Shown piece by piece: positions 10,048 to 50,772 of a stretch of 64,000 nt of DNA. This DNA comes from Thermoanaerobaculia bacterium (GTDB lineage: Bacteria > Acidobacteriota > Thermoanaerobaculia > Gp7-AA8). The notes beneath the pieces were generated by a model. That model was given only the letters and a program-made list of their open reading frames with translations, did no database searches and was not told where the DNA came from. The translations under genes and the position numbers were made by a program. The stretch covers positions 9,199 through 73,198 of the forward strand of contig DASPZU010000069.1 of the NCBI GenBank assembly GCA_035636095.1, in the 5' to 3' direction. Within the stretch, counting starts at the first letter, position 1; the number at the start of each line of letters is the position of its first letter.

Positions 10048-10579
10048 CGAACATCCACGTGCACACGGCGACCGCGACGATGGCCGCGACGAGATCGCCG
10101 ACCAGCGCTGCTGGAATCGCATGGCGTGTCCGCTTGACGCCGATCGCGCCGAAGTAGACCGCCAGCACGTAGAACGTTGTCTCCGATCCGCCGTAGATCG
10201 TCGCGGCCGTGCGGCCGATCAGCGAATCGGGCCCGAATTGTTTAACGATGTCGGTGGTCAGTGCCAGCGATCCGCTGCCGGAAAGCGTTCGAAGGATCAC
10301 GAGCGGGAAAATGTCGGGCGGAAAGCGCGTCGCGCGGAGCAATGGGGCAAGCGCAAAGGTGAGGATGTCCATCGCTCCGGAGGCGCGGAACATTCCAATC
10401 GCCACCAGAATCCCCACCAGGAACGGGATAATCCGCACAGCGACCTGAAATCCTTCCTTTGCGCCTTCGATGAAAACGTCGTAGACCTTGATGTTTCGAG
10501 CCATCCCGATGAGTGGGATGCCGACCAGGAGGACGGGGATCGCCCACAGCGAGATGGCGCCGAGGATCTGGCGAATCAT
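10043..10579 (-). CDS. spmB: spore-maturation protein B-like nucleoside-recognition membrane protein
   Basis: SpmB-like Gate-domain membrane protein. Overlaps spmA by 4 bp. Confidence 0.7.
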   Translation of the reverse strand: MIRQILGAISLWAIPVLLVGIPLIGMARNIKVYDVFIEGAKEGFQVAVRIIPFLVGILVAIGMFRASGAMDILTFALAPLLRATRFPPDIFPLVILRTLSGSGSLALTTDIVKQFGPDSLIGRTAATIYGGSETTFYVLAVYFGAIGVKRTRHAIPAALVGDLVAAIVAVAVCTWMFG

Positions 10580-13693: not shown

Positions 13694-16600
13694 TCAGAAC
13701 TGAACGCGAGCTGTGAGCTGGAACCGGCGCGGTGCGTAGTGCGACTGTGCGAAGGGCGCTCGCACCGCCCAATCCGCGCGGTTGAATGTTGCGTTCGGCG
13801 AGAGCAGCGGCTTCAGCACTGCATCGGAAATCGAATCCGGAATCGGAACGGTCTTCGTCGTCGAGTTCTGCGTGATGTTGACGAAGCCGAGAGAGTTCGT
13901 CGAAACCGCCGTTCCTGTACCGATGCGCGTCTCGAAGTTGTAGCCGGTCTGCCTGTTCAGCAGATTGAAGACGTCGGCCGCCAATTGGAAGTTGAGACCC
14001 TTGGGCAGCCGGAAGCTCTGCGTGTAGTTGAAGTCGAATTGGTAATGCGACGGCGAGGTGCGGTTCCCAGCCGGTTCTGCGTAGCGGTTCGTATCGCTCG
14101 CTGACGTCGTGAACTGACGGTACGGCAACACGCTCTCGAGCTGATAGGGCTGGCCGGTCTGGTATAGGAAGAACAGGCCGCTCGTCGCCTGCCAAGGAAG
14201 CGCATACGTACCGTTGAGTTTCAGATTGTTGCGACGGTCGCCGCGAAGGTTTCCGTACTTCATGTTCCACAACTGCCGGCCCGGTCCATCACCGATGTTC
14301 GATGAACCAATGAAGATGGCCGCGTCATTAGCAAAGCTGAACGAGGAGTTGTCCTGGTCGAAGTTTCCGTAGTAGTGGCTCCAGGTGTACGAGCCGCCGA
14401 CGGTCAAATTCCGCGCGCGGTACTCCGACTCCGCGGTGGCCTCGTAGTACTTCGTGAAGGCGCCGTCGAGATTGGCGATGACGTAAGTCGAACCGCTGCC
14501 GATCGCGCCACGAATCGTGTTCGGGCCGCAGGTCGCAATTCCGGTATTGCAAAGGTTCGGAACGTAGTCCGTGGTTGGGATTCCCGCGGGCGCTCCGAAA
14601 TCGGCGCGAGCGGTGTTGTTGGTGTCCTCGAGGTAGTGATCGCCCTTGCGGTAGCGTGTGTAGAGGCGCGACGACCAGTTCGAGCTAATCTGGCGGCTCG
14701 TGCCGATCATGAACTCCTTGATCTCGGGATGCTTGATCCCGTCCTGCCACCACTTGCCGGACGACGACGCATTCGGCGCGATGCCAAGCAGATTGGCGTT
14801 CTGGTCGAAGTAGACATTGAGCTGCTGGACGAGATTGCGGTCCCACGATGCGGCGCGGGCGTCGGAATTCGCCGGGGGCATGTAGCGTGCGAAGCTCGCC
14901 CACACCGTGCCCGACGGGTTGTACGCCCACGTCGCGCCGAGGCGCGGCTGGATCATGTCCCCGAAGCTGAATCGGTGCATGAGGTACTTCGTGCCGGGCG
15001 ATGCGATGAAGCCGGCGACGTTGTCCGCCTTCTTCAAACCCTGTCCGTAAAGCGTGTCCTGGCTATCGAGGACGCCGACGTTGAACGTCCAGTTGTTGAA
15101 GTGGATCGTGTCGTTGAGCTCCAGGTTTGTGGTGTGGATCTCGGAGTGAATCGTCGGAACGCCGGTGGCACCCTGCTGACTGACCTGCGCGCGGAAGTAC
15201 GAATTGGTGGCCGTCCCGCAAACGGTTGCCGGGCACACCGTGCCCGCCGCACCGGTCCCTGCCGGTACGTCGATGACTCCCCATCCGTTCGACAACTGAA
15301 ACCGATCCTCGGAATCCTTGAGTTGCTGGAAGCCGATGTGCAGGTCATTCGCGACATTCGTTCCCAGCGTGTAGTTGTAACCGGCCTGCCCGGCCTTACG
15401 ATAGAAGCTGTCGTCGTCGCGCGAGAACTGTCCGAAGCCGACCGTCCCGCCGCCGGTCTTCGCACCCGGAGTGCAATTGAGATTGAGCTGCGCCGGGTTC
15501 TGCGGGCAGATGAATCCATATTGATTCACGAACGGCGCGACGAATGCGCTTTGCGCCGCATTCGACGAGATTGGGCTCGGAATGATGAGACGTCCCTGGT
15601 TCGCGAGCTGCGTGATGTCGAGGTGTGTGCCCTTCGCGAAGTTCGGAACAACGGAGGCGACATTTGACGCCGTGCCTGTTCCCGGATTGCGGTAGTCATA
15701 AACCTTTGCGGTCGCGAAGCTCTTCGGGTTAATAACCCACGAGCCCTCGAGGGTGCCGATCTTTAGTTTGACCTTCGAGTCGGTGCCGGTCGTCGCGGCC
15801 TGTGTCGAACCGAATGACGACGGCGTTTCATCAGTCTTTGAGTCGCGATAGCTTCCGTTGATCAGCAGCGATCCGAGCGGTGTGAAGGTAGCTTTGCCGA
15901 ACCAGTCCGTCCGCTTCAGCTCGTACTTCGGCAGATCGCCGTAGACGTTCGCCTGATTCGACTTCGTGAACTGCGGACGGTAGTAGGAGCCGTAGAAATA
16001 GAGCCGGTCGCGGAGGATCGGACCGCCGGCGTTCACGGTCGCCCACGTGCGGTCCTGCTGATAGGTCAGGATCTGCGATCCGCTCTGATTCGCGATGAAG
16101 TTCTTGTTCAGCACTTCGTAACTGGCTTCGCCGGTGAGCTTGTTCGTTCCCGACTTCGTGACAGTGTCGATCTGGAAGCCGCCGGCGCGATCGAAGTCCG
16201 TCGCCTTCGCGCCGCCGCGAATGACGGTGACCTGCGCGATGTCGTGATTGTTGGGATCGGACGATGTCGCATTCAGGACGCCGAACAGCGGCATGGTGAT
16301 ATTCACGCCGTCGAACAAGTACACGTTGTCCTGACCGCTCGCGCCGGCGCTCGGGCCGCGGAACGTGTCGGGGTTGTACATGACGCCTGGGATGAATTTC
16401 TGGAGGTCGCTGTAATTCTGCGTGATCGGCAACTGGCGGATCTGATCGCTCGTCAAGCCGCTCTGCAGCGCGGTCGACTCTTTATCGACCAGCGTGGCCG
16501 CGGCGGTGACAGTGATTGTTTCGGCCACCCCCTGCAGTCCGAGCTTCACGTCGGCGACCACGTTTTGCGAAAGAACGACTGTCGCCTTCCGTGTCACGGT

Positions 16601-18037: not shown

Positions 18038-19315
18038 TCACGCCCTCTGCTCTTCTTCGATTTCCTGCCATTCCGGATCGCGCGTCACTTTTACGCGGTA
18101 GATACGGCGACGGTCGGCGCGGTCGACCTCGAATCGATATCCGTTCTTGCTGATCACCGTCCCGGCTTTCGGAACGCGTCCTAGGGTCGTGAAGATCATT
18201 CCGGCGACAGTTTCGTAATCCTCGCCTGCGAAGCTGGCATCGAGCATCTCTTCCAGCGTGTCGATGGGAAGCATGCCGCTGATCAGGTATTCGTCGTTTC
18301 CGAGATCGACCACCGTCGCTTCGACCGACTCGTGCTCGTCGGCAATCTCCCCGACGATGTCCTCGACGATGTCTTCGATGGTGATCAAGCCGGCCGTCCC
18401 GCCGAACTCGTCGACCACGATGGCCAACTGCATGTGCTCGCTCTGAAATTCGCGCAGCAAGTCGGAGACCTTTTTCGTCTCCGGGACGAAGTAAGGCGGA
18501 CGCGCGAGATCAGCGACCGTTTTCGGCTCCTTTCTCATGACATAATCAAATACATCTTTAATGTGTACAATTCCTGTGATGGCGTCGATGCTCTCCTGAT
18601 AGATCGGAATTCGTGAGAATTTCGATTCGCTGAATAGCCGCGCCAGTTCATCCAGCGACTTGCGTGCATCGAAGGCCAGCATGTCGATGCGCGGCGTCAT
18701 CAGCTCGCGCGCCATGCGATCGCCGAACTCCACCACCGAGGCGATCATCTTCCCTTCGCTGGGCTCGAGGATCCCTTCCTCCTCCCCCACGTCGATGAAG
18801 GCCTGCACCTCTTCGTCAGTCACCGTCTCCGGCTCCGCCTCTTCCTCTTCCTGACGATCGAGGCGCGCGAACATGCGTCGCATCGGAAAGAGCACCGGCC
18901 AGAATAGGTAGTAGAAAAAATGCGAGAACGGGATCATGTGTTTCAGCGCGATCTCACCGATGTCATCCGGCACGAGCGCAAGGCCGAACTTCCACAGAAT
19001 CACGATTGCCAGCCACAGGCCTCCCGCGATCGCGACGGCACGAGCGATCGGGCGCGGCTGAACCGCCATCACGGTGCATGCAAACGACACCACCAGCGCG
19101 GTCTGCAGAAGCGCGCCGCTCATGAGCTGCAGGTTGCGCGGATCGTAGGAAAACCAGCGGCTGCCGCGCTCCAGCTCCGGATCGCCGCTCCATCGTCGGA
19201 GCGTGACCGCGCTGACCTGCTGCGCGAAATGGCGGACGGCATCGAAGAGGAGGTAGAAGACGCCGCTGACGACGGTCGCGGCAATCCATTCTCCGTGCGA
19301 GAGGCTACTTCCCAT
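18038..19315 (-). CDS. corC: CNNM/CorC-family protein (DUF21 TM + CBS pair + CorC_HlyC)
   Basis: Domain order is evident from the translation. Confidence 0.8.
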   Translation of the reverse strand: MGSSLSHGEWIAATVVSGVFYLLFDAVRHFAQQVSAVTLRRWSGDPELERGSRWFSYDPRNLQLMSGALLQTALVVSFACTVMAVQPRPIARAVAIAGGLWLAIVILWKFGLALVPDDIGEIALKHMIPFSHFFYYLFWPVLFPMRRMFARLDRQEEEEAEPETVTDEEVQAFIDVGEEEGILEPSEGKMIASVVEFGDRMARELMTPRIDMLAFDARKSLDELARLFSESKFSRIPIYQESIDAITGIVHIKDVFDYVMRKEPKTVADLARPPYFVPETKKVSDLLREFQSEHMQLAIVVDEFGGTAGLITIEDIVEDIVGEIADEHESVEATVVDLGNDEYLISGMLPIDTLEEMLDASFAGEDYETVAGMIFTTLGRVPKAGTVISKNGYRFEVDRADRRRIYRVKVTRDPEWQEIEEEQRA

Positions 19316-19336
19316 CGGGCGTGGGGCGGAATTCTA

Positions 19337-19798
19337 TCAACTGAGGAAGAGCGCAACTATGGCAACAACAAGTGCCGATTTCATCAGTAGTTCCGCGCGA
19401 TGATGAAGCTTTCCGAACACGGCGGCGTCCCCCCGATTCCGCTCCATCGCCGGTTCGAGATAGGCAATTTCGTAAACGACGGTCAGGGCAAGCAGCGCGA
19501 TCGCGACCCATCGAACGGCGATCCAGGGACTCTCGGCATTGCGCTCCCACCCGACATACTTCGCGGCCGCGCCTGTGATGATCAGGACCACGGCGATGAC
19601 TCTTAACCGCGAGAACCGGCGCAGCGTCGGACCGAAAATTGCCCCCGCCTCCGCCCTCGGAAGGGCCTTGAACAGGGCCGGCGCGACCAGGGCACCGAGG
19701 GCGATGCTTCCTCCGATCCAGAGGGCCAGGCCAACTTGATACAGGAAATTGATCGCTAGATACGACCAGTTTGGCATACTGAAGGCTAACAGCTTCAT
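19337..19798 (-). CDS. DUF4149-like small membrane protein
   Basis: Four hydrophobic helices. Start taken at MKLLAFSMPNW. ORF track over-extends to 19939. Confidence 0.55.
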   Translation of the reverse strand: MKLLAFSMPNWSYLAINFLYQVGLALWIGGSIALGALVAPALFKALPRAEAGAIFGPTLRRFSRLRVIAVVLIITGAAAKYVGWERNAESPWIAVRWVAIALLALTVVYEIAYLEPAMERNRGDAAVFGKLHHRAELLMKSALVVAIVALFLS

Positions 19799-20447
19799 GA
19801 CCGCGTTGCTCCTCATCACCGCCCTGACAATCCAGACCAACACGCTGGTGCTGCGCACCGGAGATCGCATTGCAGTGGAGGGAGTGGTGCGCGTGGACGG
19901 CCCGCAAGTTCTCTTCCGAGCCGGTGGCGCGCTGTACACGATTCCGACGCAAGACGTCGACCTCGATGCCAGTCGCAGCGAAGTGTTGCCGGCACCGATT
20001 CGGGCAGAGACACGGGGAAGGTTGCGCGTGACGCCTGAAGAGCGCGATCGGCTGCTTCGCGATCTCGAGCAGAATCACACCGGAACTGCGCCGCCTCCCG
20101 CGCCGCTCGAGGTTGTCGCTTCGCAAGCTCCTTACGAGCGACGACAGATCAACGAGGACGAGTGGTCTTGGCGGAATCGGGTCCACGCTTACGAAGAAGA
20201 CATCCGTCGCGCTCAGGAAGACGTCGATTACCTGGAGAACAAAGCGCAAGCCCTCAAGGCCCACATCGCCGGTCTTCTGTCCCTCGGATTCAAACCGAGT
20301 CAGTTTACATACGACACGACGCTGCTCGTGAACACGGTCGACCAGATTCCGCGCGCGCAACTCGAAGTCGTGCGCGCACAGCGGCTGTACGACCAATTCC
20401 GCGACGACGCGCGCAAGCAGGGCGTGACGCCGGGCTGGCTGCGTTAG
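19797..20447 (+). CDS. hypothetical secreted protein
   Basis: MTALLLITALTIQ signal-like N-terminus, then a charged coiled-coil-like region. Confidence 0.45.
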   Translation: MTALLLITALTIQTNTLVLRTGDRIAVEGVVRVDGPQVLFRAGGALYTIPTQDVDLDASRSEVLPAPIRAETRGRLRVTPEERDRLLRDLEQNHTGTAPPPAPLEVVASQAPYERRQINEDEWSWRNRVHAYEEDIRRAQEDVDYLENKAQALKAHIAGLLSLGFKPSQFTYDTTLLVNTVDQIPRAQLEVVRAQRLYDQFRDDARKQGVTPGWLR

Positions 20448-20460
20448 CGCGCTTCGCGGG

Positions 20461-20514
20461 CGTTGTCGGTTGTCGGTGTTCGGTTGTCGACAACTGACAA
20501 CCGACAACTGACAA
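20461..20514. repeat. heptamer-palindrome element family D: (GTTGTCG/G)x4 abutting (CAACTGA/CAACCGA)x4, centred on GTCGAC
   Basis: Direct reading. Loopless 54-bp palindrome between convergent genes. Confidence 0.85.
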
Positions 20515-20516
20515 CG

Positions 20517-21170
20517 TCAAGGCTCCGGTCCAAAGCTCTCCACGATCACTTCCGCGGTGTCCATCCCGTTCGCGCGCAAGGCCGACTGCACGCGCGCCAG
20601 GAAGCCATCGAATCCGGCCGTCATCTTCAGCGAGCCTTCGAGTGTTTTTCGATTGCGTCCGATGAGCATCTCGATCTTGCCGCTTTCGTGAACGATCGCG
20701 CCCGTGCGCGCGAGCGGATCGAAATCGCCCGCGTACAGAATGTGCCGCTGATCGGGCTCATACAGCACGGTGATCTTGCGGCGATCGCCGACGGCCAGCA
20801 TGTGCAGCACGATGCTCCGAATCGGCGCGATTCCGGTGTCCCCGGCCAGGAAAACCACCGGACGGCCATCGGCCTGCGGTAGGACGAAGTCGCCGTAGGG
20901 CCCGTCGATGGAGACATCCGCGCCGGGCTCGAGCCTCTTGAGAGCTTCGCCCCCCTTGCCTGCTCCGACGCGGACGCATAGCTGCACGGCTTCCGGTAGT
21001 TGCGGCGCCGACGCGATGGTGTACGCACGCGAAACCCCTTCCGGAAACCCGAAGTTCACCCATTGCCCGGGCTCGAAGTGGAAATCGCGATCGTTCAACG
21101 CCACCGTCAACTGAACGACCGAGGGGGCGAGCTCTTCGATCTCGGTGACGGTCGCGGTGTGCTCCGGCAT
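20517..21170 (-). CDS. ferredoxin-NADP reductase-like FAD/NAD(P)-binding oxidoreductase
   Basis: RAYTIAS...GKGGEAL...FLAGDTGIAP motifs. Confidence 0.7.
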   Translation of the reverse strand: MPEHTATVTEIEELAPSVVQLTVALNDRDFHFEPGQWVNFGFPEGVSRAYTIASAPQLPEAVQLCVRVGAGKGGEALKRLEPGADVSIDGPYGDFVLPQADGRPVVFLAGDTGIAPIRSIVLHMLAVGDRRKITVLYEPDQRHILYAGDFDPLARTGAIVHESGKIEMLIGRNRKTLEGSLKMTAGFDGFLARVQSALRANGMDTAEVIVESFGPEP

Positions 21171-45045: not shown

Positions 45046-45852
45046 CTAAAGCCCGGGCGCTGTCGCTTTCGGTCGGCTCAGCTCCGCATCAATCACCTTC
45101 GCGAACTCTTCGTACGGCTTCGCGCCGGACAAGAAATGACCATTCACGAAAAACGCCGGAGTTCCGCTGACCCCGAGCCCTTTGGCCTCGGCAATGTCTG
45201 CATCGATGGCACTCTTGCCGCGCGTGCCGTCAAGGTCGGATTCGAAGCGCTTCATGTCCAGGCCGAGGTCGCGCGCGTACTGGAGCAAGTACTGACGTTG
45301 AATCTTCGGCTGATTCGCGAACAGCTTGTCGTGATACTCCCAGAATTTTCCCTGATTCTGTGCGGCCATCGCTGCGAGATGCGCCAATGGTGAGTCTTTG
45401 TGAAAATCGAGCGGATAGTGTTTCCAAACGATTCGCACCTTGTCCCCGTAGGTTTTTCGGATCTGCTGGAGAGTCGGACCGACTCTCGAACAGAACGGTC
45501 ACTGGAAATCGGAGAATTCGGCGATCGTGACGGCTGCCGTGATCGGGCCTTCCATCGGCGCGCCGTCGATCTTGACAGGATAGACGCGATTGGGATCAGG
45601 TCCACGCTGTCCAGGCGCCGCGCTGCGCGCTGCGACCCGCTCCACGTTTGCGGAGAGCTTCGCAAGGCGAGAATCGATCTGGTCAAGTCGAGACTCGAGG
45701 TTGTTAGCTGCCGTGCGAGTCGATCGGGCATTGAAGTAACTGGAGACGAGGAGAACGGACAAAACCGCGATCGTCGCACCCTGCACCATGACCGCGAGCG
45801 AGGATCGGCGCTCCTCGGATTCGATTTTGGGTGGTTCTCGATGTTTACCCAT
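45046..45852 (-). CDS. DsbA-like thioredoxin-fold oxidoreductase with in-frame TGA at the first CxxC position (candidate selenoprotein, UPFC)
   Basis: ORF-track pieces 45499..45852 and 45046..45438 are one reading frame joined through TGA at 45501..45499. EFSDFQ[TGA]PFC aligns to EFSDFQCPFC of the upstream paralog. 7-bp hairpin GAGAGUC-GGUCC-GACUCUC lies 11 nt 3' of UGA. Confidence 0.6.
45469..45487 (-). ncRNA. candidate bacterial SECIS hairpin inside coding sequence
   Basis: Perfect 7-8 bp stem, apical loop GGUCC (contains GGUC), 11-nt spacer from UGA. Confidence 0.45.
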
Positions 45853-46644
45853 CTAGCGAGTTCCCCCACCTCCGCCTGGCGGCATCAGAACAGAGTCGAT
45901 CGCCGACTTGAACTCCGCGTACGATTTGGCGCCAACGAGCTTTTTGGTGATTTTCACGGAACCGTTTGGCTGGACGACACCGATGAGAAATGACGGCGTT
46001 CCCGAGATGCCTGCACCGCCCGCGTCGGCGATGTCTTTCTTGATCTCGGTGGCGAAGCGCCCGCTGTCGAGACATTGCTGAAAGAGCGAAACATTCAGTC
46101 CCAAAGCTTCAGCGTGCTTGGGAAGATCGGCGGCTGCGATGTTCTGCTGATTGGCGAAGAGGCGATCGTGCATGTCCCAGAATTTCCCTTGCTCGCCGGC
46201 ACAATGCGCCGCCTCGGCCGCCTTTTCGGCGTTCTGATGAAAGTCGAGCGGATAGTCGCGCCACACATACTTCACCTTGCCGGTGTCTACGTAGTCCTTG
46301 AGGATTGCGGGATATGTGTCTTTGTCATACCGGCCACAGAACGGACACTGAAAGTCGGAGAACTCAATGACGGCCACTTTCGCGTTTGGGTTCCCCTTGA
46401 ATGGTTCTTTGTCGACATTGACAGGCGCAATGGGAAGCGCATCGGCCGCGGGTCGCCCTTGCCCCTGCTGCGCGAGTAATTTGTGAATCTCTTGCAGTTC
46501 TTTCAGGATCGCCTTCTGGCTCTCACTTAGAGAATCGATTGCCTTCTTAAAGTCATCGGTCTGTGTCCCTTGGGCCGATGCGGCAACCGGTGCGATCACC
46601 ATCAGCAATGCAACCATCGTTCGAGCGAAACGCGCCTTCTTCAT
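45853..46644 (-). CDS. DsbA-like thioredoxin-fold oxidoreductase (Cys paralog, CPFC)
   Basis: VIEFSDFQCPFCGRY...GTPSF motifs. Signal/TM MKKARFARTMVALLMVIAPVAASA. ORF track over-extends to 46695 through a hairpin. Confidence 0.8.
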   Translation of the reverse strand: MKKARFARTMVALLMVIAPVAASAQGTQTDDFKKAIDSLSESQKAILKELQEIHKLLAQQGQGRPAADALPIAPVNVDKEPFKGNPNAKVAVIEFSDFQCPFCGRYDKDTYPAILKDYVDTGKVKYVWRDYPLDFHQNAEKAAEAAHCAGEQGKFWDMHDRLFANQQNIAAADLPKHAEALGLNVSLFQQCLDSGRFATEIKKDIADAGGAGISGTPSFLIGVVQPNGSVKITKKLVGAKSYAEFKSAIDSVLMPPGGGGGTR

Positions 46645-46685
46645 GAACCCCCCTCGTTTGGGCGATGACGATTCAAGAATGAGGC

Positions 46686-46719
46686 CCGTCCGCACGTGCG
46701 GGCGCGCACGTGCGGACGG
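46686..46719. repeat. perfect 15-bp-arm hairpin CCGTCCGCACGTGCG-ggcg-CGCACGTGCGGACGG
   Basis: Direct reading. Intergenic within minus-strand operon. Confidence 0.8.
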
Positions 46720-46723
46720 AACC

Positions 46724-47206
46724 CTATTGGATCGTCATGCTCCCCTGATTGACCGTTGCCGTCGGCAGCGCGGTCTGGCCCAGGAGCACGCCGATCGTCC
46801 CTTGATCGTTGGCGTTTGTCGTGATCGTGGCCGTGAACGGGACACCAAGAAGCGGCGGGGTGCCGTCGCCCATGTTGATCGTGCACGTGCCGGAGAAAGT
46901 AGCGATGTTCGCCGCGTTTCGGGAACCGCTGGTGGCCTTGCCTTCAATCACGATGTTTTGCTGCAGACCTCCAAGAGAAACACCGAGCAGAATTGTGCAA
47001 AACTGGCCAAGCGATCCCGTGGTATCGATCTGCACGCCGTAGCCGGACTGCAGGCCGTTGATCGGAACTCCATTGAAAGTTGTACCAGGCGGAAAGATCC
47101 CGCCCGCGCCGGCCGTCACCGAGGTCTGCGCGAGGGCGGGCGGACTCCCGCCGAAAATCACGCCGAGGGCGATGGCGGTGAGCAAAACTGCAAACCTGAT
47201 CTTCAT
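46724..47206 (-). CDS. small secreted Gly/Thr-rich hypothetical protein
   Basis: Signal peptide MKIRFAVLLTAIALGVIFGGSPPALA. Confidence 0.5.
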   Translation of the reverse strand: MKIRFAVLLTAIALGVIFGGSPPALAQTSVTAGAGGIFPPGTTFNGVPINGLQSGYGVQIDTTGSLGQFCTILLGVSLGGLQQNIVIEGKATSGSRNAANIATFSGTCTINMGDGTPPLLGVPFTATITTNANDQGTIGVLLGQTALPTATVNQGSMTIQ

Positions 47207-47217
47207 CTCTAGTCTCC

Positions 47218-50200
47218 TTAGTTCGTCGGATGCTTCTGGATGTTTCCGTTGCTCAGCGTATGGCAGCCGGTATCCATCATCAGGGTGCAGGAAGTGGGCG
47301 CATTGGGATCCTGGTCGCTCGGGAGGCGCTGAATGCGGATCCTGTCCGAATTTGCTCCAGGCTCTGTGTTGTCTTCGACTGTAACCCTGTAGATGCAGCC
47401 CGTCTTCTTATCCCTCACCTTGAACGTGATGCAGTTGGTGCAGCTGGGGCAGTCGCCGTTATTGCCGCAAGGAGTTACCAGTCCGATGACTGGCCCATTG
47501 ATGTGGAACCCCGATGTGTGGTCGAGGCCGTTGAACTCGCCATCGGTGGGCCCGTTCGAGGGTGTCCTGAAGTTGAAACCGAAGCTCCACTTGTTGCCGT
47601 TGGTGGCGATGAATTGACCGCCGCCGGTGTACTTAACGGCCGTGGGGGTACCGGTGCAGATGCCGCCGCTACAGGTGTCGTTGCTGGTGCAGGCATCCCC
47701 GTCGTTGCACGGAGCGGTGTTGTTGTTGTGCACGCAGCCCGTCGCTGGGTTGCACGAGTCGTCGGTACAGACGTTGTTGTCGTTGCAGTTGGGCGGCGAC
47801 CCGCCCACGCACGAGCCGAGGGCGCAGGTGTCGTTGGTGGTACAGGCGTTCCCGTCGCTGCACGGGGCGGTGTTGTTGGTGTGCGCGCATCCCGTGGCCG
47901 GGTTGCACGAGTCGTCGGTGCAGACGTTGCCGTCATCGCAGTTGGGCGCAGGCCCGCCTATGCAGGTTCCACCACTACAGGTGTCATTGGTCGTACAGGC
48001 GTTGCCGTCGCTACAAGGATTGGTGTTGTTGGTGTGCACGCAGCCCGTGACCGGGTTACAACTGTCATCGGTGCAGACATTGTTGTCGTTGCAATTGGCA
48101 GCCGGCCCGCCGACGCATGCGCCCGCGGCGCAAGTGTCATTAGTCGTACAGGCGTTCCCGTCGTTGCAGGGGCCGGTGTTGTTGGTGTGCACGCAGCCTG
48201 TGGCCGGAACGCAGCTGTCGTCGGTGCAGACGTTGCCGTCATCGCAGTTGGGCGCCGGCCCGCCGACACAGGTTCCACCACTACATGCGTCATTGGTCGT
48301 ACAGGCGTTTCCGTCGCTACACGGGTTGGTGTTGTTGGTGTGCACGCAACCCGTCTGTGTGTTGCAGGTGTCGGTCGTACAGACGTTGCCGTCGTCGCAG
48401 TTGGGCGCCGGCCCGCCGACGCACGTTCCGTTGGCGCAGGTGTCGCTCGTGGTGCAGGCGTTCCCGTCATTGCACGGGTTGGTGTTGTTGATATGTGTAC
48501 ATCCGCTGGCCGGGTTGCAGGCGTCGGTCGTACAGACATTCCCGTCGTCGCAGTTAGGCGCAGGCCCGCCGACGCAGGTTCCACCACTACAGGTGTCATT
48601 GGTGGTACAGGCGTTCCCGTCGCTACAGGGATTGGTGTTATTGGTGTGCACGCAGCCCGTGGCCGGGTTACAACTGTCGTCGGTGCAGACATTGCCGTCG
48701 TCGCAGTTGGGCGCAGGCCCGCCTACGCACGCGCCACCCGCGCAGGTGTCATTGGTAGTACAAGCGTTCCCGTCGCTGCAGGGGTTGGTGTTGTTGACAT
48801 GCGTACACCCACTGGCGGGGTTGCAGCCGTCGGTCGTACAGACATTCCCGTCGTCGCAGTTAGGCGCAGGCCCGCCGACGCACGCTCCCGCGGCGCAAGT
48901 GTCGTTGGTCGTACAGGCGTTCCCGTCGTTGCAGGGGGCGGTGTTGTTAATGTGCACGCAGCCCGTGGCCGGGTTACACGAGTCGTCGGTGCAGACGTTA
49001 TTGTCATTGCAGTTGGGAGCTGGCCCGCCGACACACGTTCCACCCGCGCAGGTGTCGTTCGTGGTACAGGCGTTCCCGTCGTCGCAGGAGGCGGTGTTGT
49101 TGGTGTGCGTGCATCCGCTCGCCGGATCGCACGCATCGTCGGTACAGACGTTGTTGTCGTTGCAGTTAGGCGCTGGCCCGCCCACGCACGTCCCACCCGA
49201 ACACGTGTCATTGGTGGTGCAGGCGTTCCCGTCGCTACAGGAGGCGGTGTTGTTAGTGTGCACGCAGCCTGTGGCCGGATTACAGCTGTCGTCAGTGCAG
49301 ATGTTGCCGTCGTCGCAGTTGGGCGCAGGCCCTCCTACGCACGTGCCACCCGCACAGGTGTCATTGGTGGTACAGGCGTTCCCGTCGTTACAGGGGGCGG
49401 TGTTGTTGGTGTGCACGCAGCCTGTGGCGGGGTTACAGCTGTCGTCGGTGCAGACATTGTTGTCGTTGCAGTTAGGTGCAGGCCCTCCAACGCAGGCTCC
49501 ACCGCTACAGGTGTCATTGGTGGTACAGGCGTTCCCGTCGTTGCAGGGGGCGGTATTGTTGGTGTGGAAGCATCCGCTCGTCGGGTCGCAAGCATCATCG
49601 GTACAGACGTTGCCGTCGTCGCAGTTGAGTGGGGCGCCGGGGTTACAGGTCCCCCCACCGCACACCTCATGGCCATTGCACACCGTGTTGTCATCACATG
49701 AGGCGGTATTGTTGGTGTGTACGCACCCTGTCGCGGGATTGCAGCTGTCGTCAGTGCAGACGTTGTTGTCGTTGCAATTGACCGCGCTGCCCTCGCAGAA
49801 CCCCAGGGAGTTACAGGTGTCGTTGGTGGTGCAGGCGTTGCCGTCGTTGCAGGAAGTCCCAGTGGCCGGAGTGTGGCGACAGGCATGCAAAGTCGTATCG
49901 CATGTATCGGTGGTACACGGGTTGCCGTCGCTACACTGCGAGGCGTCGGTGCATCCCTGAAAAAGGATACAGTCCGAAGGGTCGGAGTTTGGTATCTCGG
50001 ACGGATAGGAGCACGCGTCAACCAACGTGGCGCTCGTGCCCGCCCCGAAGTCGGCAAGATCGACCGAGCAAGTGGCGACTGTGTCCGAGGGGTAGGCGTC
50101 ATCGGGTGGGAAGGGATCGGTGTTCTGCTGCGACACCGAGCACGTGGTGTTCTTGCCTGGCCCCGGCATACAGGCACCACCGCCGAGGCAGCCCGATTCG

Positions 50201-50772
50201 CTTGAGCAGGGGGCGCCGGCATTGGTCCCGCCGACACACATGTTCCCAGCGATCTGTACACTACCAGTACACCTGTCAGGCCTACTGTCGCTGCAGTTGA
50301 ACAGCCTCACTGCTCCCAGTGTGGCGAATTGGCCATGGTCCCTTATGGTCACGCAGACCGCGAGGTTGACATTGCCATTACCGTTGGTGTCATAGAGGGA
50401 GCAGGCATCGCCGGTGTTTCCGCCGGAGAGAGTTACGAGGTCCCAGTCCCACTGTGTAAAGACCTCGAACGGGCTAGTTCCGGGCTCCACACAGAATCGT
50501 GTCAGGTCCTTCTGACCAGGTACGTCGTTGGCCCCTTGCACGTCGTTTTGACAACTAACGAACACGGGCTGGGCAGCCGCCGGAGGTGCGGCCAGCGCAA
50601 TCAGCGAAATCAAAGTCGCTATGAGACAAAGAGACCGGAAGGTCAGCCCGAAGCTTCTATTACGGCTGCATCGGGTCAACCTTCCGGCGTTGCTTCTATA
50701 GCTGCTTTGAGGGGCGTTAAGTAGAGAGGCTGCGCACAGCCGCGTACAGCGGCAGGAATCTGGGTCTCGCAT
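47218..50772 (-). CDS. giant secreted cysteine-rich protein with about 17 tandem 46-aa Dictyostelium-CTDC-type repeats (CxDGNxCTxDxCxxxTGCxHTNNTxPCxDGNACTTNDTCxGGxCVGGPAPN)
   Basis: Translation is strongly periodic with about 190 Cys. Signal-like LCLIATLISLIALAAPPAAAQP. N-terminal start uncertain (first Met far upstream of signal peptide). Confidence 0.85.
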   Translation of the reverse strand: MRDPDSCRCTRLCAASLLNAPQSSYRSNAGRLTRCSRNRSFGLTFRSLCLIATLISLIALAAPPAAAQPVFVSCQNDVQGANDVPGQKDLTRFCVEPGTSPFEVFTQWDWDLVTLSGGNTGDACSLYDTNGNGNVNLAVCVTIRDHGQFATLGAVRLFNCSDSRPDRCTGSVQIAGNMCVGGTNAGAPCSSESGCLGGGACMPGPGKNTTCSVSQQNTDPFPPDDAYPSDTVATCSVDLADFGAGTSATLVDACSYPSEIPNSDPSDCILFQGCTDASQCSDGNPCTTDTCDTTLHACRHTPATGTSCNDGNACTTNDTCNSLGFCEGSAVNCNDNNVCTDDSCNPATGCVHTNNTASCDDNTVCNGHEVCGGGTCNPGAPLNCDDGNVCTDDACDPTSGCFHTNNTAPCNDGNACTTNDTCSGGACVGGPAPNCNDNNVCTDDSCNPATGCVHTNNTAPCNDGNACTTNDTCAGGTCVGGPAPNCDDGNICTDDSCNPATGCVHTNNTASCSDGNACTTNDTCSGGTCVGGPAPNCNDNNVCTDDACDPASGCTHTNNTASCDDGNACTTNDTCAGGTCVGGPAPNCNDNNVCTDDSCNPATGCVHINNTAPCNDGNACTTNDTCAAGACVGGPAPNCDDGNVCTTDGCNPASGCTHVNNTNPCSDGNACTTNDTCAGGACVGGPAPNCDDGNVCTDDSCNPATGCVHTNNTNPCSDGNACTTNDTCSGGTCVGGPAPNCDDGNVCTTDACNPASGCTHINNTNPCNDGNACTTSDTCANGTCVGGPAPNCDDGNVCTTDTCNTQTGCVHTNNTNPCSDGNACTTNDACSGGTCVGGPAPNCDDGNVCTDDSCVPATGCVHTNNTGPCNDGNACTTNDTCAAGACVGGPAANCNDNNVCTDDSCNPVTGCVHTNNTNPCSDGNACTTNDTCSGGTCIGGPAPNCDDGNVCTDDSCNPATGCAHTNNTAPCSDGNACTTNDTCALGSCVGGSPPNCNDNNVCTDDSCNPATGCVHNNNTAPCNDGDACTSNDTCSGGICTGTPTAVKYTGGGQFIATNGNKWSFGFNFRTPSNGPTDGEFNGLDHTSGFHINGPVIGLVTPCGNNGDCPSCTNCITFKVRDKKTGCIYRVTVEDNTEPGANSDRIRIQRLPSDQDPNAPTSCTLMMDTGCHTLSNGNIQKHPTN

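Follow-up and report, generated by a model that had tools for sequence, protein, structure and literature searches.

We analysed a 64-kb stretch of DNA (hereafter, the window) that carries two tandem genes for DsbA-like proteins on its minus strand, one of which is interrupted by an in-frame TGA that very probably encodes selenocysteine (Sec). The window belongs to the JGI soil contig Ga0137388_10000008 (160,857 bp), and the same proteins are found in an NCBI metagenome-assembled genome (MAG) of Thermoanaerobaculia (Acidobacteriota). Translation of the minus strand from 45852 to 45046 yields a frame of 268 codons with a single internal stop, the TGA of codon 118, which is preceded by AAVTIAEFSDFQ and followed by PFCSRVGPTLQQIRKTYGDKVRIVWKHYPLDF (in longer form, EFSDFQ before the stop and PFCSRVGPTLQQ after it). 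The frame terminates at a TAG, and its ATG abuts the TAG of the upstream paralog with no gap. When Cys was substituted for the stop, the Pfam domain PF01323 (DSBA) was found to span the TGA at 103 bits, against a gathering cutoff of 25.6, and PF13462 (Thioredoxin_4) matched at 97.6 bits, against a cutoff of 23.2. The best solved relative is 4pwo_A (DsbA, E 3e-24), whose CPFC lies opposite the UPFC of the window protein, and BLASTP against the upstream paralog (38% identity, E 9e-51; active-site context AVIEFSDFQCPFCGRYDKDTYPAILKDYVDTGKVKYVWRDYPLDF and EFSDFQCPFCGRYD) likewise sets the TGA opposite the first Cys of CPFC; residue 118 (U118) is placed at the active site because the sequence matches solved DsbAs.

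Downstream of the TGA, after a spacer of exactly 11 nt (45498..45488), lies a perfect hairpin with arms GAGAGTC (45487..45481) and GACTCTC (45475..45469) around a GGTCC loop (45480..45476), and its 71-nt context folds at -24.7 kcal/mol (z = -2.2 against shuffles). No hairpin resembling a selenocysteine insertion sequence (SECIS) follows the Cys codon of the paralog at 46644..45853. An earlier note on this DNA, made from the letters alone, had described the frame that reads through the TGA, the position of that codon at the first Cys of a CxxC motif and the hairpin 11 nt 3' of it, and each of these was borne out by translation, by both alignments and by exact coordinates. The features are collected in Table 1.

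Table 1. Positions in the window of the two DsbA-like genes and of the elements found in the gene that contains the TGA
Feature	Position	Strand	Remarks
Candidate DsbA-like selenoprotein gene, complete	45046..45852	(-)	267 residues, the 118th very probably Sec; ATG 45852..45850; TAG 45048..45046
UGA codon 118, putative Sec, first position of the UPFC redox motif	45499..45501	(-)	Aligned with the first Cys of CPFC in the paralog and in 4pwo_A
TGT codon 121, resolving Cys of UPFC	45490..45492	(-)	Cys invariant across all homologs
DSBA-like thioredoxin domain, residues 109-254	45091..45528	(-)	PF01323 E 2e-29; PF13462 E 1e-27
G-T-P cis-Pro loop	45165..45157	(-)	GTP of VSGTPAF aligned with the cis-Pro loop region of 4pwo_A
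Hydrophobic N-terminal segment SLAVMVQGATIAVLSVLLV, residues 18-36, after a charged stretch	45745..45801	(-)	Mean Kyte-Doolittle 2.2 over 19 residues
Putative SECIS upper hairpin GAGAGUC-GGUCC-GACUCUC	45469..45487	(-)	Encodes part of S-R-V-G-P-T-L; 19-mer at -10.6 kcal/mol
Apical loop GGUCC (or GUC triloop if the outer G-C closes)	45476..45480	(-)	GGUC starts 18 nt after the UGA
Extended stem with lower helix UCUGUU/AGCAGA, window sequence only	45462..45494	(-)	Not recovered by RNAalifold across orthologs
Upstream tandem paralog, 263 residues	45853..46644	(-)	Signal peptide MKKARFARTMVALLMVIAPVAASA; CPFC, with TGT at 46347..46345; NCBI HYS54556.1, DsbA family protein

The TGA recurs in other assemblies of this population. 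In a second JGI sample, the gene sequence, TGA included, is identical (samples 3300012189 and 3300012096, whose contigs show 2 differences over 12.7 kb), and this codon is also present in JGI 3300009089, ENA ERZ27253178, NCBI GCA_009772495.1 and two Logan SRA assemblies, which brings the independent assemblies with TGA to at least seven (loci L001-L008). Reassignment of the codon was ruled out, since 11 of the 25 Pfam-supported genes in the window end in TGA. Public annotation breaks the gene at this point: NCBI HYS54555.1 (locus tag VER58_12430), a 117-residue 'hypothetical protein' in the same record as MetK (HYS54553), LptE (HYS54554) and the Cys paralog (HYS54556), is the N-terminal fragment up to the TGA. 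The gene callers of JGI and ENA also split the gene, and the same mis-call was found in every ortholog checked and in at least 120 metagenome contigs.

Homologs were collected with a protein query carrying X at the stop, at one genome per species and with search patterns that excluded the active site, and the active-site codon was then read in each DsbA domain encoded by the resulting 80 loci. The aligned Cys position is TGA in 21 further species-level genomes belonging to the Acidobacteriota, the Planctomycetota/Phycisphaerae and the Myxococcota, namely ten Acidobacteriota-type MAGs near the window (L010-L018, L025), two more distant ones (L071, L075), eight Planctomycetota/Phycisphaerae and one Myxococcota (L044). 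Together with the window, these genomes hold 26 domains with TGA (Sec forms), set against 143 distinct domains with Cys (Cys forms). Two of the orthologs are located on complete chromosomes, OZ252293.1 (Vicinamibacterales, L075) and CP070744.1 (Phycisphaerales, L031). The gene architecture is kept in the orthologs, and the frame stays open for 142-166 codons after the TGA in 22 of 22 single-domain genes (the window and 20 genomes, the multi-domain Myxococcota gene of L044 being left out of this set). Compared with the window, the region downstream of the TGA has 47-71% amino-acid identity and a ratio of nonsynonymous to synonymous substitution rates (dN/dS) of 0.10-0.37, with dS mostly above 1 and therefore saturated; closer pairs give 0.08-0.31. 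This region is under purifying selection. An exact-pattern scan of metagenome contigs recovered at least 120 contigs with the TGA form and, among the matches listed, at least 141 open codons follow the TGA in 90 of the 92 copies whose stop lies inside the contig.

The hairpin is itself selected as RNA. The 26 Sec-form domains were chosen by protein similarity, independently of nucleotide sequence, and all 26 carry the apex GTC GGT xCG, with a third-base entropy of 0 at codons +6, +7 and +8 and of 0.5-1.9 bits at neighbouring codons. Fifteen columns are fourfold degenerate in all 22 single-domain genes, and the only invariant ones among them are +6 (Val GTC) and +7 (Gly GGT). Cys forms with the same RVGPT peptide have other loops and encode the Gly as GGC in 8 of 10 cases (Fisher p = 1.5e-6 versus Sec forms), whereas, of the 25 distinct Sec forms that remain after an identical pair is merged, 23 have the loop GGUCC and 2 have GGUGC. 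A single copy of the conserved apex GTCGGTCCGAC is present in the window, where chance would yield 0.14.

Stem pairing has likewise been maintained while the sequence changed. Both-sided changes were found in three of the seven pairs, and 92.9% of cells in the alignment pair; when the 3' arm was slid by 1-3 columns, pairing fell to 24-52%, and no shuffle reached the observed covariation score. RNAalifold over the 26 sequences recovers a conserved six-pair core, and the lower helix UCUGUU/AGCAGA probably lies outside the conserved element because RNAalifold misses it across orthologs. At stem pair 4, the matches listed among 112 distinct metagenome copies comprise 87 GC, 12 GU and 13 AU pairs, with no mismatches. 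The window itself has AGA...ACU where most relatives have AGG...ACC, a compensatory exchange in which both changes are synonymous and the pair is preserved. Hairpin variants of the orthologs fold at -9.6 to -12.7 kcal/mol.

The bacterial SECIS (bSECIS) consensus model (Zhang & Gladyshev, in PMC13188914 Fig. 2) comprises an upper stem of 4-16 bp capped by a loop of 3-9 nt, a G in loop position 1 or 2 (typically N1-G-[G/U]-N-N2, with N1 and N2 pairable), a distance of 16-37 nt from UGA to apical loop and a minimum free energy no higher than -7.5 kcal/mol (PMC13188914). The window hairpin agrees with all of these: it has 7 bp with a GGUCC loop (5 nt) or 8 bp with a GUC loop (3 nt), its G-G-U-C-C is an exact fit to the loop pattern (GGU in 26 of 26 Sec forms), its distance is 18 nt (the 11-nt spacer plus the 7-nt arm, constant in all Sec forms), and its energy of -10.6 kcal/mol is below the limit. 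The SECIS of Escherichia coli fdhF, the sequence of which was checked against 5,419 E. coli genomes (100% match inside fdhF), has the same 11-nt spacer and an apical GGUC at the same distance of 18 nt; counted from the U of the UGA, the offset is 21 in both elements. The fdhF element differs in its upper stem, which has a bulged U and folds at -4.2 kcal/mol (17-mer), whereas the window stem consists of 7-8 perfect pairs under a GGUCC loop. The likeness of GGUC to the SelB-binding loop and the placement of the hairpin within the bacterial range, both pointed out in the earlier note, are thus upheld; that note had also named a degraded gene with no fit to a SECIS model as grounds for rejecting the candidate, and what was found is a hairpin that fits bSECIS in an intact frame under purifying selection.

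Based on the direct observation of the codon and of the hairpin, and of their conservation, covariation and selection, we consider 45852..45046 very probably to be a genuine Sec-encoding DsbA-like gene. The candidate as first proposed is sustained by a conserved UGA, an open and selected frame, a conserved and covarying hairpin, and the use of TGA as a normal stop elsewhere. From this we infer SelB binding, Sec insertion, a periplasmic topology and a direction of redox flow. The mRNA hairpin 45487..45469 would work as a bacterial SECIS during translation, and SelB, carrying GTP and Sec-tRNA(Sec), would bind the apical GGUC that lies 18 nt downstream of the UGA. SelB would deliver Sec once the UGA enters the ribosomal A site, and the ribosome would continue for 150 codons; here, the Sec machinery is assumed to be present in the host genome. 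The product would be a membrane-anchored, periplasm-facing DsbA-like thiol-disulfide oxidoreductase with Sec as its nucleophile (U118-P-F-C121), cycling between selenenylsulfide and selenol/thiol and exchanging disulfides of envelope proteins. Hydropathy suggests that residues 18-36 may form a signal-anchor that would place the DsbA domain in the periplasm; the paralog has a signal peptide of the classical type.

Several observations weigh against a Sec gene. The R-V-x-P-T-L peptide is itself partly self-complementary at the codon level, and since Cys forms already average ~4 of the 7 pairs, the frozen loop and the compensatory changes count for more than the stem alone. No SECIS or other relevant Rfam family was returned when the full window was searched at gathering thresholds or when 45300..45650 was searched with E values allowed up to 10, so that of the SECIS model search proposed in the earlier note the published bSECIS features speak for the hairpin and the Rfam comparison does not. 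The genes selA, selB, selD and selC were not found in ~74 kb, comprising the 64-kb window and ~9.3 kb beyond the window start that were read on the near-identical sister-sample contig Ga0137389_10000007. Within the window, 20 large open reading frames (ORFs) include no sel genes and were identified by Pfam as housekeeping genes only, and ARAGORN detected no tRNA there and no tRNA-Sec in 26 loci. Searches by tblastn with approximate E. coli SelA, SelB and SelD queries gave no match in the window or in loci L001-L089. That the machinery is not visible in the window had been remarked from the start, and this still holds. SelA, SelB and SelD have been reported in several Acidobacteria, including Koribacter with 11 selenoproteins and Solibacter with 8, and selenoproteins also in Planctomycetes; not all Acidobacteria have them, and the trait is patchy within the phylum.

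This patchiness and the ~74 kb without machinery would also fit a true Sec family in a lineage from which the Sec machinery has recently disappeared, or in which the UGA is decoded by another route (near-cognate readthrough that inserts Cys or Trp), so that the protein is made inefficiently or not at all, and a relative with TGT at the active site and the hairpin kept (L056, below) adds to this. The doubly synonymous compensatory AGA/ACT in the window implies, on the contrary, that the structure was still under selection in the lineage, and the close relative L011 (MetK 90% identical) keeps both TGA and hairpin; we regard this reading as very unlikely. Termination at the UGA would instead give two products, a 117-residue anchored N-terminal peptide and a C-terminal piece of 107-130 residues from an internal GTG or ATG, and exactly these pieces are called by JGI, NCBI and ENA. 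Yet the ~20 codons that separate the TGA from the called restart would go untranslated although they are conserved and selected, the C-terminal piece has neither a CxxC motif nor an export signal, and the N-terminal piece stops one residue before the active site. Every lineage would have its split at this one catalytic codon, and both products would be non-functional, which makes this alternative very improbable.

The adjoining Cys paralog, and the partial complementarity of Cys-form homologs at the same positions, could suggest a pseudogene: of two mutually redundant DsbA paralogs, one would have been inactivated by a nonsense mutation, and the hairpin would arise incidentally from the codons for RVGPTL. 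A decaying pseudogene could not be the source of a conserved TGA followed by an open, selected frame, which here recurs in 21 other genomes of three phyla and on at least 120 metagenome contigs (~142-166 codons in single-domain genes). The frozen synonymous sites are restricted to the hairpin apex, and the paralog, 38% identical and of another clade, is no redundant twin. The nonsense mutation that the earlier note left as an alternative is accordingly rejected on the conserved TGA, the intact frame and dN/dS, and we hold a pseudogene to be extremely improbable. Sequencing or assembly error, with TGT or TGC as the true codon, is only the prior possibility that attaches to a single metagenome contig; because the identical gene with TGA was recovered in JGI 3300012189 and 3300012096, and the same codon in further JGI, ENA, NCBI and Logan assemblies, error can be set aside, the probability left to it being negligible.

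In a rough neighbour-joining tree of 188 DsbA domains, the Sec forms fall into several clades along the lines of the phyla, and Cys forms are nested within or sister to these clades. The Cys paralog of the window falls into a different clade from the Sec gene, together with Cys forms of L011 and L017. The tandem arrangement, put forward at the outset as the typical footprint of a bacterial selenoprotein, is weak evidence because the paralog is only 38% identical and belongs to this other clade; judged from its sequence, it is not a recent Cys/Sec twin. Strong Cys/Sec evidence is instead provided by homologs in other genomes. In L056 (position 10286, a MAG labelled Deltaproteobacteria, JAUYMQ010000446.1), the active site has TGT and the hairpin AAGGGUC-GGUCC-GACCCUG is kept, and the domain stands beside the Sec form of L018 in the tree, which looks like a recent Sec-to-Cys conversion. 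In two Planctomycetota loci, L042 (10259, 11488) and L048 (9069, 10259), a Sec DsbA lies next to a close Cys paralog at a tree distance of 0.12-0.18, and these look like true Sec/Cys backup pairs, unlike the pair in the window.

The Myxococcota gene (L044 9824-12460, in the MAG Myxococcota bacterium, JBBTFH010000117.1) is one ORF of ~878 codons; it encodes an N-terminal anchor and, in tandem, four DsbA domains, whose active-site UGAs at 10052, 10709, 11363 and 12014 are each followed by a GGUCC hairpin of their own, while the terminal TGA has none. To our knowledge, bacterial proteins with four Sec residues seem unusual. The full-length protein search was dominated by two-domain Myxococcota DsbA fusions and was of no use for deciding on Sec. 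Comparison of L011 with the window gave 85-90% identity for MetK and LptE (MetK 90%), 77% for the Cys paralog and only 64% for the Sec-DsbA, and the local gene order is rearranged; from these identities, the Sec gene would appear either to evolve faster or to have been exchanged.

We tentatively raise the possibility, short of an even chance in our estimate, that this DsbA subfamily is a hot spot of repeated switching between Cys and Sec. The idea arises because R-V-G-P-T-L is encoded at a fixed distance from the active site by codons that are nearly self-complementary even in Cys forms. If it is true, one or two synonymous changes would make or destroy a SECIS with GGUC at an fdhF-like offset. 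Such switching would explain why separate Sec clades from three phyla share the GUCGGUCCGAC core, why Cys forms are nested in or next to Sec clades, and how the L044 protein came by its four UGA codons and four SECIS elements.

DsbA-like UxxC selenoproteins (PF01323) were first described from the Sargasso Sea by Zhang, Fomenko & Gladyshev in 2005 (PMC1088965), have been found in Anaeromyxobacter, Desulfovibrio and Desulfotomaculum (PMC1794560), were counted in 41 organisms in 2016 (PMC5029168) and are listed as 'DsbA-like protein form 1' in a 2026 review (PMC13188914), in line with the earlier statement that such proteins are known elsewhere. Read as a Sec gene, 45852..45046 is a new, mis-annotated representative of this type of selenoprotein with standard bacterial decoding. 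It shares with the published ones the DsbA-like thioredoxin fold, Sec for the first Cys of CxxC, an in-coding SECIS directly downstream and widespread Cys homologs. Compared by description, the Sargasso set belongs to COG2761 (FrnE-type), whereas the window protein matches best to Thioredoxin_4 and to BdbD/Corynebacterium-type DsbA, with FrnE at E ~9e-4; the host also differs, being here a soil Thermoanaerobaculia MAG. Our literature search found no paper that mentions Thermoanaerobaculia together with selenocysteine.

The best NCBIfam match of both paralogs is NF041057 (Rcas_1661 thioredoxin-like (seleno)lipoprotein), which is likewise a DsbA-like exported family with Sec and Cys forms. The window protein is not a member, as it scores 115.4 bits against a cutoff of 190 and has a signal-anchor-like N-terminus without a lipobox Cys, and this score below the cutoff probably explains why the Sec was missed by the NCBI pipeline. 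Solved Cys-type DsbA-like enzymes, namely 4pwo_A (DsbA), 7unn_A, 3gyk_A (27 kDa outer membrane protein) and 3eu3_A (BdbD), are similar to the window protein along the entire domain (E 3e-24 to 1e-15), with EFSDF-x-CPFC and VSGTPAF aligned; all have Cys in place of U118, and none is a selenoprotein.

For public annotation, this reading would correct HYS54555.1 to the N-terminal part of a 267-residue selenoenzyme, and a periplasmic selenoprotein would be added to the Thermoanaerobaculia, a class of soil Acidobacteriota about which little is known. The comparative set, with its frozen synonymous sites and doubly synonymous compensatory changes, offers an unusually clean natural experiment on the constraints that act on in-coding SECIS elements. 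The compact 19-nt element with fdhF-like geometry could be tried for recombinant selenoprotein expression. Existing knowledge of the mechanism of Sec decoding is unchanged by these results.

A window-wide scan for in-frame TGA codons followed by SECIS-like hairpins gave only junctions of adjacent genes and antisense ORFs, and no second selenoprotein candidate. Among the junctions, the TGA at 20517-20519 on the minus strand, which ends a 217-residue ORF (21170..20517), shares its frame with the ORF that follows (20507..19305, no Pfam match), and a 9-bp hairpin lies 21 nt further on; evidence from Cys homologs is absent, and this TGA was treated as marking two adjacent genes. In L036, ARAGORN called a 94-nt 'tRNA-Trp (cca)' at 14485-14578, ~5 kb from the Sec-DsbA, which gave no Rfam tRNA match at E up to 0.01 and is probably a false call.

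Directly upstream of the DsbA pair, the gene at 47218-50772 on the minus strand encodes a 1184-residue protein with ~20 copies of a Cys-rich repeat (CNDGNACTTNDTC, NCDDGNVCTDDSCNP, GC; Pfam Dicty_CTDC/DUF7107), and between it and the DsbA genes lies a gene for a 160-residue exported protein (46724-47206, minus strand). Homologs of both proteins occur near the Sec-DsbA in L010, of the 160-residue protein in L011 and of the repeat protein in L025, and the two DsbA proteins may have this disulfide-rich repeat protein as a client. In the JGI annotation, the repeat gene is split and an overlapping antisense ORF is called. Between the gene for the 160-residue protein and the start of the Cys-DsbA gene, a near-perfect 14-bp GC-rich inverted repeat (46685-46720, UCCGUCCGCACGUGCG-CGCC-CGCACGUGCGGACGGG, -32.8 kcal/mol) could be a terminator or a regulatory hairpin.

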